A DNA stretch of 10,392 nt, from IMG/VR virus record IMGVR_UViG_2534681697_000028, positions 1 through 10,392 of that record; one strand, given 5' to 3'. The notes under the pieces were generated by a model. The model was given only the letters and a program-made list of their open reading frames with translations. It ran no database searches and had not been told where the DNA came from. Positions 2,701 through 7,479 of the stretch are shown in pieces (position 1 is the stretch's first letter; each line of letters begins with the position of its first letter). Made by a program: the position numbers and the translations under genes. The stretch comes from a virus. Lineage: Duplodnaviria > Heunggongvirae > Uroviricota > Caudoviricetes.

Positions 2701-2732
2701 AATTATAACTGGATGTACATCCAGTTATAATT
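2701..2732. promoter_or_regulatory. 32-bp perfect palindrome aattataactggatgtacatccagttataatt overlapping divergent -10-like hexamers; candidate operator of the capsid operon promoter
   Basis: Verified base by base as a perfect inverted repeat. TATAAT on the plus strand at 2732-2737 and on the minus strand at 2735..2730. Centre lies ~44 nt upstream of the start at 2673. Confidence 0.6.
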
Positions 2733-2835
2733 ATAATCATAGTTGCATTTTGCGCAATAGAATTGAGTTGCGTTGCAAATTATGAAATGATTTACGGCAA
2801 CAGTAGTCACCATGCTGTTAACCTCGTAAGCAAAA

Positions 2836-5894: not shown

Positions 5895-7440
5895 TGTTAG
5901 CCAGCCAGACCCGGCATGATTACTGCCCCCAGTCGTCCATGATCCGGGGGGTGATGTCACCGGGTCTGGTGGGGCGCTGGTAACCGCTAATAGGGGTCAG
6001 GTCAGGCACTTTTGCCGGGACCGTCTGTAACGTGGATGCCGGTACCTGCTCCCCGTGGTTATCTGGTTAACCCATATACAAGGGAGACAGAATGACCGAA
6101 TCCAGCGATTACGAATCCGTCCAGGTCTTTATCGGCGTTGATGTCGGTAAAGATACGCATCACGCTGTTGCCATTAATCGTTCAGGTAAACGCCTGTTCG
6201 ATAAAGCATTACCCAACGACGAAAACAAACTCAGGTCGCTAATATCTGACCTGAAACAACATGGTCAGATACTGCTGGTTGTTGATCAGCCAGCTACCAT
6301 CGGTGCGTTACCTGTCGCCGTTGCCCGCTCAGAAGGAGTCCTTGTCGGATACCTCCCTGGACTGGCCATGCGCCGCATAGCCGACTTACACGCCGGTGAA
6401 GCTAAAACTGATGCTCGTGACGCTGCCATCATTGCCGAAGCTGCCCGTACCCTGCCTCACGCGCTACGCACGCTGAAACTGGCTGACGAGCAAATCGCCG
6501 AACTCTCCATGCTCTGCGGCTTCGATGATGATCTTGCCGCACAGAAACGCAGGCCAGCAACCGTATCCGCGGCCTTCTGACCCAGATACATCCGGCACTG
6601 GAGCGCGTTCTCGGTCCGAGACTTGAGCACCCGGCGGTACTCGATCTTCTCCAGCGATATCCCTCACCAGAAAAACTCGCTTCGCTGGGTGAGAAGAAGC
6701 TGGCAGCCCAGCTCTGCAAACTTGCGCCTCGTCTGGGTAAACGCCTTGCAGCAGACATAGCTCAGGCACTGGCCGAACAAACCGTCGTCGTTCCCGGCAC
6801 GAATGCCGCTGCCGTAGTACTGCCACGTCTGGCACTCCAGCTCATCACGCTGCGTAAGCAAAGAGACGAGGTGGCGCTTGAGGTAGAACAGCGAGTTCTT
6901 GCTCACCCTCTTTACCCGGTCCTGACCAGTATGCCCGGAGTCGGTGTCAGGAGCGCAGCCAGACTCCTCACCGAGGTCGCCTGCCGCGCCTTCGCCTCTG
7001 CCGTACATCTCGCTGCTTATGCTGGCCTTGCGCCGGTAACTCGGCGATCCGGCTCGTCAATACGCGGTGAGCATCCCCCGCGACGGGGTAATAAAGCTCT
7101 CAAACGGGCGTTGTTCCTGTCGGCCTTCGCCGCGCTCAGGGATCCGCTCTCCAGGGCTTACTACACCCGCAAAATGAGTCAGGGAAAACGACACAATCAG
7201 GCGCTTATCGCCCTGGCGAGACGACGCTGCGACGTTCTGTTCGCCATGATGCGCGACGGGACTTTTTATACCCCGCAGGGGTCATAACATGCTTGACAAC
7301 TTAATAGGGGCACGTTACGCCCCGCCATAATGCGGGTATGGGTAGGTTTACGGACACAAAAAAACCGCATATCGGAATGTAAGCGGCTGTCCGCTTTGCT
7401 ATTCAGGCTGTCAAACCCGGTCGCCATGTGGGCGACGGGG
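5895..7440 (+). mobile_element. IS110-family insertion sequence (boundaries approximate)
   Basis: Contains the IS110-type transposase reading frame 6092..7287 with non-coding flanks. The family lacks terminal inverted repeats, so the ends cannot be fixed by eye. Confidence 0.7.
6092..7287 (+). pseudogene. IS110-family transposase (DEDD-type recombinase), split by an apparent 1-nt deletion in the A-run 6545-6547
   Basis: N-terminal ORF 6092..6580 carries the DEDD/RuvC-like start FIGVDVGKDTHHAVAI. The conserved continuation ...TQASNRIRGLLTQIHPALERVLGP... and the C-terminal MPGVGVRSAARLL...AAYAGLAPVTRRSGSS block are in a frame open from 6532 to 7287. SD AGGGAG precedes ATG 6092. Confidence 0.85.
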
Positions 7441-7479
7441 GAAGAATACAGCCCCACGGTAATTTTTTGCAAGTTGTTT

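Follow-up and report, generated by a model that had tools for sequence, protein, structure and literature searches.

Host LexA, acting through an SOS box, serves as a direct sensor of DNA damage at the tum promoter of coliphage 186 and at the rstA promoter of CTXphi, where the boxes govern lysogeny or antirepressor decisions. Among phage satellites, operon I of the staphylococcal SaPIs, which is involved in packaging and capsid morphogenesis, has been described to be under LexA control (Ubeda et al. 2007, Mol Microbiol 65:41, as cited in PMC6092414 and PMC6739421). In E. coli, LexA control has been established experimentally for chromosomal DNA-repair genes including ruvA (box CGCTGGATATCTATCCAGCA) and cho (box CACTGGATAGATAACCAGCA), both with half-sites of the form CTGG...CCAG instead of CTGT...ACAG, a 16-bp spacing and an AT-rich centre (PMC3009722, Table 4). 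For the E. coli island EcCICFT073, the prototype Gram-negative phage-inducible chromosomal island, the published regulation is the activation of early genes by AlpA (Fillol-Salom et al. 2018, 2019; PMC6092414); this island is packaged in full-sized capsids, and deletion of its capsid and decoration homologues, c1499 and c1500, detected no role for them in interference (PMC6092414).

The stretch of DNA analysed here (10,392 nt, referred to as the window) is an EcCICFT073-type phage-inducible chromosomal island (PICI), that is, an E. coli phage satellite, and the core of a long palindrome found in it is most probably a canonical operator of host LexA, predicted from its sequence, at the promoter from which the capsid-homologue operon would be transcribed. 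This reading is supported by the match of the core to verified LexA boxes, by its position at a conserved promoter-like element and by a conservation pattern that is specific for LexA. LexA repression is itself a textbook mechanism; for its predicted operator on the capsid-homologue promoter of an EcCICFT073-type island, a search of the freely accessible literature for the exact cores, and for LexA in combination with PICI or EcCICFT073, found no earlier account. The locus resembles SaPI operon I in that a satellite would have the promoter of a head or packaging operon held by the host SOS repressor, so that expression would follow the signal by which helper prophages are induced, and in that the box precedes head-related genes in an element with an integrase, a primase and AlpA-type genes. 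It differs in that the SaPIs have a Gram-positive host, a different LexA motif, unrelated genes and experimental proof, whereas the operator of the window is a prediction. With 186 tum and CTXphi rstA it would share the borrowing of LexA by a mobile element for a promoter of its own, but the box of the window lies before a satellite structural-gene operon. In sequence it is closest to the ruvAB box, and it has the half-sites, spacing and AT-rich centre of the ruvAB and cho boxes; unlike them it belongs to a satellite, is embedded in a longer perfect palindrome and is predicted.

All the genes surrounding this site are encoded on the minus strand. The integrase gene occupies one end of the window (10392->9490). 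Annotated relatives, to which EcCICFT073 also belongs, are located between phoQ and roxA (L001) or at tRNA-Pro (E. coli Nissle 1917). Upstream of the operon lie a D5/primase-helicase gene (5323->3569) and a 93-aa ORF (3280->2999). The operon itself is a tightly packed set beginning 28 nt below the palindrome with a 68-aa ORF (2467-2673, PHROG 3255), whose stop codon overlaps the start of a homologue of the lambda gpE-like major capsid protein (c1499-like, 1412-2467; Pfam Phage_cap_E, E=1.5e-48). A homologue of the lambda gpD-like head decoration protein follows (c1500-like, 1097-1387; Pfam HDPD, E=9e-15) and, 12 nt downstream of it, a 137-aa ORF (671-1084, PHROG 1999); these four genes would constitute the transcription unit. 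EcCICFT073 likewise carries a primase gene, the 68-aa ORF, c1499 and c1500, and it shares the promoter, with AACTGGATGAACATCCAGTT as its box; in most of the E. coli copies the primase gene and the 68-aa ORF are separated by a PerC-family gene. Unlike the prototype, the copy in the window looks partly decayed: its alpA contains an amber codon, and it bears an IS110-family insertion.

The palindrome is real and strongly non-random. It extends from 2701 to 2732 and consists of two arms, AATTATAACTGGATGT (2701-2716) and ACATCCAGTTATAATT (2717-2732), which are 100% complementary and are separated by no spacer; to this feature, as to the boxes and the bidirectional terminator described below, no strand is assigned. 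A repeat search found it as a single copy within the window. Its arm is 16 nt long; when the window was shuffled 500 times with its dinucleotide composition preserved, the longest perfect arm had a mean of 6.7 and a maximum of 11 nt, so that the perfect 32-bp inverted repeat reported in the earlier note holds, with the correction that the end coordinate given there, 2737, includes a flanking TATAAT and that the palindrome proper stops at 2732.

The transcriptional context of the palindrome is that of a promoter. A bidirectional intrinsic terminator hairpin, formed by the inverted repeat AAAAGCCCGATAAG...CTTATCGGGCTTTT (2828-2878) and conserved in L001, L134 and L241, is located just upstream, next to a second, minus-strand terminator, GCCGGAGAAAATCCGGC followed by TTTTTG (2880-2902), which is also kept in relatives; the capsid operon therefore needs a promoter of its own in the interval of ca. 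155 nt that bears the palindrome. Reading along the minus strand, this interval contains a putative -35 hexamer TTGCGC (2757->2752), 16 nt, a -10 hexamer TATAAT (2735->2730), 3 nt, a 20-bp core, a T-run (2702->2697), the Shine-Dalgarno sequence GAGGAA of the 68-aa ORF (2683-2688) and its ATG. We take the two hexamers as a predicted sigma-70 promoter. As the earlier note had it, TATAAT occurs on both strands, with two hexamers on each (2726-2731 and 2732-2737 on the plus strand; 2735->2730 and 2707->2702 on the minus strand), but the hexamer at 2735->2730 is alone in being kept in relatives and paired with a conserved -35, and those within the palindrome arms are not conserved. Among 23 distinct box-bearing haplotypes, the -10 is TATAAT in 22 and TATAAC in one, and relatives from E. 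coli, Salmonella and Pluralibacter, together with further ones, have TTGCNN at an unchanged distance from it. A generic promoter scan of the window did not call the capsid-operon promoter, because its predicted -35 is weak and matches only three of the six consensus positions. With a start site ca. 7 nt past the -10, the 20-bp core would extend from about -3 to +17 and the whole palindrome from -9 to +23; the box, which begins 3 bp after TATAAT, would thus contain the predicted start site of a promoter that is itself predicted.

The region upstream of the -10 (2736-2800, minus strand) carries TTGCA/TGCAA repeats, namely ATTGCR-N5-TGCAAY over the -35 and TTGCAAC farther upstream, which are kept in all relatives with or without a LexA box. 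A group of relatives with capsid proteins of ca. 55% identity, in which the box is absent, has three ATTGCAC-type repeats ca. 10 bp apart (L131-L133, at ca. 1330-1370), and the repeats are therefore older than the box. They may be part of the minus-strand promoter and possibly a binding site for an activator. The T-run and AGTCAAAGAGGAA also persist in box-less relatives. The short plus-strand transcript that had been proposed to start at the palindrome could not be substantiated: the -35 candidates on that strand match the consensus at only two or three of six positions, no RNA family was found by Rfam at the palindrome or over the proposed transcript, and the conserved upstream sequence is better read as the minus-strand -35 plus the repeats.

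For the comparison with verified LexA boxes, a Lewis-type heterology index (HI) was built from 18 verified E. coli boxes (PMC3009722, Table 4). The predicted box, AACTGGATGTACATCCAGTT (2707-2726), contains the 16-mer CTGGATGTACATCCAG (2709-2724), which has the 16-bp CTG-N10-CAG symmetry and the AT-rich centre of the gammaproteobacterial LexA consensus, TACTGTATATATATACAGTA. Its HI against the 18-box matrix is 6.25, within the range of 0.6-12.8 of the true boxes in a leave-one-out scoring (n=18) and better than those of ruvA (8.5), cho, uvrB, polB, dinG, dinB and ftsK. It is the top-scoring site in the window; sites this good are expected ca. 0.0015 times per shuffled 10.4-kb window and 5e-5 times per shuffled 158-nt intergenic region. 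The earlier note had recognized the LexA-box architecture of a palindrome lying on the capsid-operon promoter, which agrees with our results and fits a dimeric repressor of capsid expression, but had considered canonical LexA less plausible than a LexA-like or element-specific repressor on the grounds that conserved T/A positions are occupied by G/C. This objection is not supported, since ruvA and cho share the CTGG/CCAG half-sites and the arms of the window, CTGGAT...ATCCAG, are identical to those of the ruvA box; moreover, the HI lies among those of true boxes, and relatives swap exactly these bases for the consensus T/A.

Conservation of the site was analyzed in 80 IMG/VR loci that were selected by capsid homology alone (87-100% identity), blind to the box. 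A LexA-type box, with HI between 5.2 and 9.2, was found at the identical offset in 77 of them. The remaining three comprise two with a box-less promoter variant and one (L084) with a 1-nt insertion in the spacer (CTGGATGAACAATCCAG), which leaves the arms intact while disturbing the LexA spacing and points to decay of this copy or to a sequencing error. Among the 23 distinct haplotypes that carry a box, the columns without variation are CTG.AT...AT.CAG and, with its single exception, the -10 hexamer. The former are the most conserved positions of the LexA consensus. In 5 of these haplotypes the disputed G:C pair is broken, each time by bases of that consensus (CTGT, ACAG, TCAG). In these orthologous promoters, therefore, positions critical for LexA are kept while other positions drift.

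Seven more distant elements were reached through homologues of the 68-aa protein (56-68% identity), and a LexA-type box was found at or slightly downstream of the corresponding position in four of the seven lineages. At the box position, Salmonella (L119) carries GACTGGATAAATATCCAGAT (HI 8.3) and L125 carries GACTGGATGCACATACAGTT (HI 7.9); in Pluralibacter (L121) the box AACTGGATGTTTGTCCAGTT (HI 7.6) is displaced 13 nt downstream; and L126 and L127 have the fully canonical boxes CACTGTATATAAATTCAGTT and TACTGTATATAAATTCAGTT, with HI of 5.5 and 4.4, respectively. In Edwardsiella (L123), L128 and L130 the box is absent and the -10 hexamer is TAAAAT, which is a weaker -10 than TATAAT. A scan of IMG/VR with a promoter pattern in which the box was left unspecified, filtered for a downstream gene encoding YISPDI (a filter that removed 128 non-family AT-rich matches), agrees with this in that TATAAT goes with the box and TAAAAT with its absence. 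The coupling is strict, all box-bearing loci having TATAAT and the box-less L101, L116, L123, L128 and L130 having TAAAAT, and therefore suggests that the repressor site and the strength of the promoter evolve together.

The core motif is confined in IMG/VR to these satellites, save for two chance matches, and a BLAST comparison of the regulatory region with 50,697 phage records rendered chance matches only, so that nothing in those records indicates that helper phages share the site. A scan of genome contigs with the capsid protein found nothing, and its alignment-based repeat rendered only three relatives of ca. 55% identity (Kluyvera, Superficieibacter and Cedecea), which have neither the 68-aa gene nor the box and are uninformative as to the operator. 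Among complete E. coli genomes, the promoter is present in 597 of 5426 (about a tenth), and the box is found in the prototype EcCICFT073, in E. coli Nissle 1917 and in an O157:H7 strain.

From these features we infer LexA binding, the start site, inducibility by damage and the extent of the operon, which would act together as follows. In the undamaged cell, a LexA dimer would sit on CTGGATGTACATCCAG and cover the predicted start site, thereby blocking open-complex formation or promoter escape, and the 68-aa, capsid-homologue, decoration-homologue and 137-aa genes would be silent. Upon DNA damage, activated RecA would promote the self-cleavage of LexA and the strong TATAAT promoter would fire. 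The same signal would induce lambdoid helper prophages, and the head-related genes of the satellite would therefore come on together with the lytic cycle of the helper. Interference of EcCICFT073 with lambda works on plain infection, without SOS (PMC6092414), and therefore the interference gene, located farther downstream than the 137-aa ORF and separated from it by a gap, is probably expressed independently of this operator.

The weak predicted -35 that the promoter scan passed over, the insertion in L084, the minority of relatives without a box and the SOS-independent interference count against a LexA operator, and other explanations of the palindrome have to be considered. It could be the operator of an element-specific or helper-encoded dimeric regulator and be LexA-like merely in appearance, the candidates being the 68-aa protein, if it repressed its own operon, or a phage repressor of the LexA-like kind. 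The symmetry indeed runs past the 20-bp LexA site by 6 bp at either end and thus exceeds the LexA footprint, and the outer arms show some compensatory changes (TAT/ATA, CAT/ATG, CAC/GTG, CAGGA/TCCTG; most relatives have CAT/ATG instead of the TAT/ATA of the window) that are real but are neither required by LexA binding nor explained through it alone. Yet most haplotypes have mismatches in the outer arms, and all the changes in the box are within or towards the LexA consensus. As to the 68-aa protein, its AlphaFold model (pLDDT 77) is beta-alpha-alpha, an order of strand and helices like that of ribbon-helix-helix (RHH) proteins, and the box-less relatives have a diverged version of it, ca. 62% identical. 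Its designation as an RHH protein, however, received no positive support: no domain was found in Pfam, only family 3255, of unannotated function, was found in PHROGs, and a Foldseek comparison of the model with the PDB gave no match below E=2 (best E=2.2). Furthermore, its N-terminal strand, GGVS/TVYISPDIV, stays constant while the half-site shifts from CTGGATG to CTGTATA, which argues against this protein reading the site. The scanned ORFs of the window yielded no LexA-like or S24-type repressor, and the confinement of the core motif to the satellites, like the lack of a match of the region in the phage records, does not favour a regulator supplied by a helper. We therefore regard a dedicated dimeric regulator as improbable.

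The symmetry itself could have its reason in the RNA, as a 14-bp leader hairpin followed by a U-run that acts as a terminator or attenuator, or as a stabilising stem-loop at the 5' end, or it could have no function at all. A terminator scan does call the palindrome on the minus strand, with 14 pairs and a loop of 4 followed by TTTTTAAG; the predicted energy is -15.4 kcal/mol (z=-6.3), and one haplotype class has a G-U-compatible pair change, CAT/GTG. But only three of the 14 stem pairs are G-C, the energy varies from -17.7 to -5.5 kcal/mol in relatives and is shuffle-like in the distant ones (z of -1.0 and -1.8), the mid-stem pair is broken in 5/23 haplotypes and pair 11-32 in 9/23, and two genuine terminators are already located ca. 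100 nt upstream. Across the 23 haplotypes, 92.9% of the cells of the 14-pair stem are paired, compared with 91.6% in shuffles; double-change cells number 7, against an expected 3.3 +/- 1.4, a value reached in 9 of 500 shuffles and weak given the close kinship of the haplotypes. These covariation counts and the folding of the relatives led us to reject a terminator or attenuator. In addition, the palindrome has the conserved -10 at its 5' edge, so that transcription from the predicted start would begin within the 5' arm and leave the hairpin incomplete; and since the T-run and its ribosome-binding context are kept where there is no hairpin, the T-run is not part of a terminator. An RNA element of any of these kinds thus seems quite unlikely to us. 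As for a functionless quasi-palindrome in an AT-rich intergenic region, perfected by a template-switch mutation, the restriction of the perfect 32-bp form to a minority of haplotypes and the free drift of the outer arms are in its favour. Against it, the 16-bp core is kept at the promoter across genera while the flanks diverge strongly, the core varies only within the LexA consensus, and loss of the box is coupled to the change in the -10 hexamer, so that we give this explanation very little credence for the palindrome as a whole. The -10 region contains the self-complementary GATTATAATC, and quasi-palindromes do tend to become perfect by template switching ('correction'), which is a plausible neutral source of the symmetry of the outer arms, and the extra palindromic arms outside the 20-bp box are probably incidental to the LexA operator that we favour.

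If this operator is confirmed, poorly understood capsid and decoration homologues would be tied to DNA damage, being off until the SOS response and on together with the helper prophage, in a convergent parallel to the LexA control of SaPI operon I. It would also be predicted that SOS-inducing antibiotics alter the expression of satellite genes, and the strains known to carry these islands include CFT073, Nissle 1917, ATCC 25922 and O157:H7.

A second LexA-like box, TACTGGTTTTCTGTACAGCT (9472-9491, HI 7.66), overlaps the stop codon of the integrase gene. An 83-aa ORF (9412->9161) follows downstream, and the TATAAT in front of this ORF is ca. 31 nt away from the box. Two sites with an HI of 7.7 or better were found in none of 2000 shuffles. 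This box is conserved in Nissle 1917 and appears in a diverged lineage as CTGTACAAAAAACCAG, while CFT073-type islands have instead GTGTATAAAAAACCAG in the integrase-alpA spacer. It is conceivable, though in our view rather doubtful, that EcCICFT073-type islands sense SOS directly at two points, the capsid-operon box and this box on the integrase/alpA side, so that LexA would be a second, helper-independent input into their life cycle, and that the capsid box is perhaps a composite operator whose long arms are read by a further factor of the satellite or the helper.

Several other features of the window were noted. A search for a lambda-type cosN rendered only chance-level matches in the window, so that nothing points to the palindrome as a cos site. 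On the minus strand, Rfam places above the gathering score a C4 antisense RNA (7723-7810), an isrK Hfq-binding RNA (7835-7911) and a c4 a1b1 target (7400-7449), and the region 7400-7911 is a P1/P7-like C4-type immunity module in a satellite; it adjoins an Ash-family sequence, and relatives have an Icd-like gene annotated at the matching place. The AlpA-type HTH gene (8805-9014, minus strand) has an in-frame amber at codon 11, where the Nissle 1917 orthologue has Q, and activation of the early genes may fail in this copy of the island. An IS110-family transposase gene, split in two on the plus strand (6092-7287; DEDD_Tnp_IS110 at 6092-6580 and Transposase_20 at 6871-7287), lies in the early region of the island and is another sign of decay. 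Finally, at 1-385 on the minus strand two ORFs overlap in different frames (385->185, and 300->1, PHROG 1561), of which the former has a TerS/Rpp-like beginning, MATQTEVARHLSLTDRQLRRLQ, followed by low-complexity sequence; they may represent a frameshifted gene where relatives have a small-terminase-like or Rpp gene.
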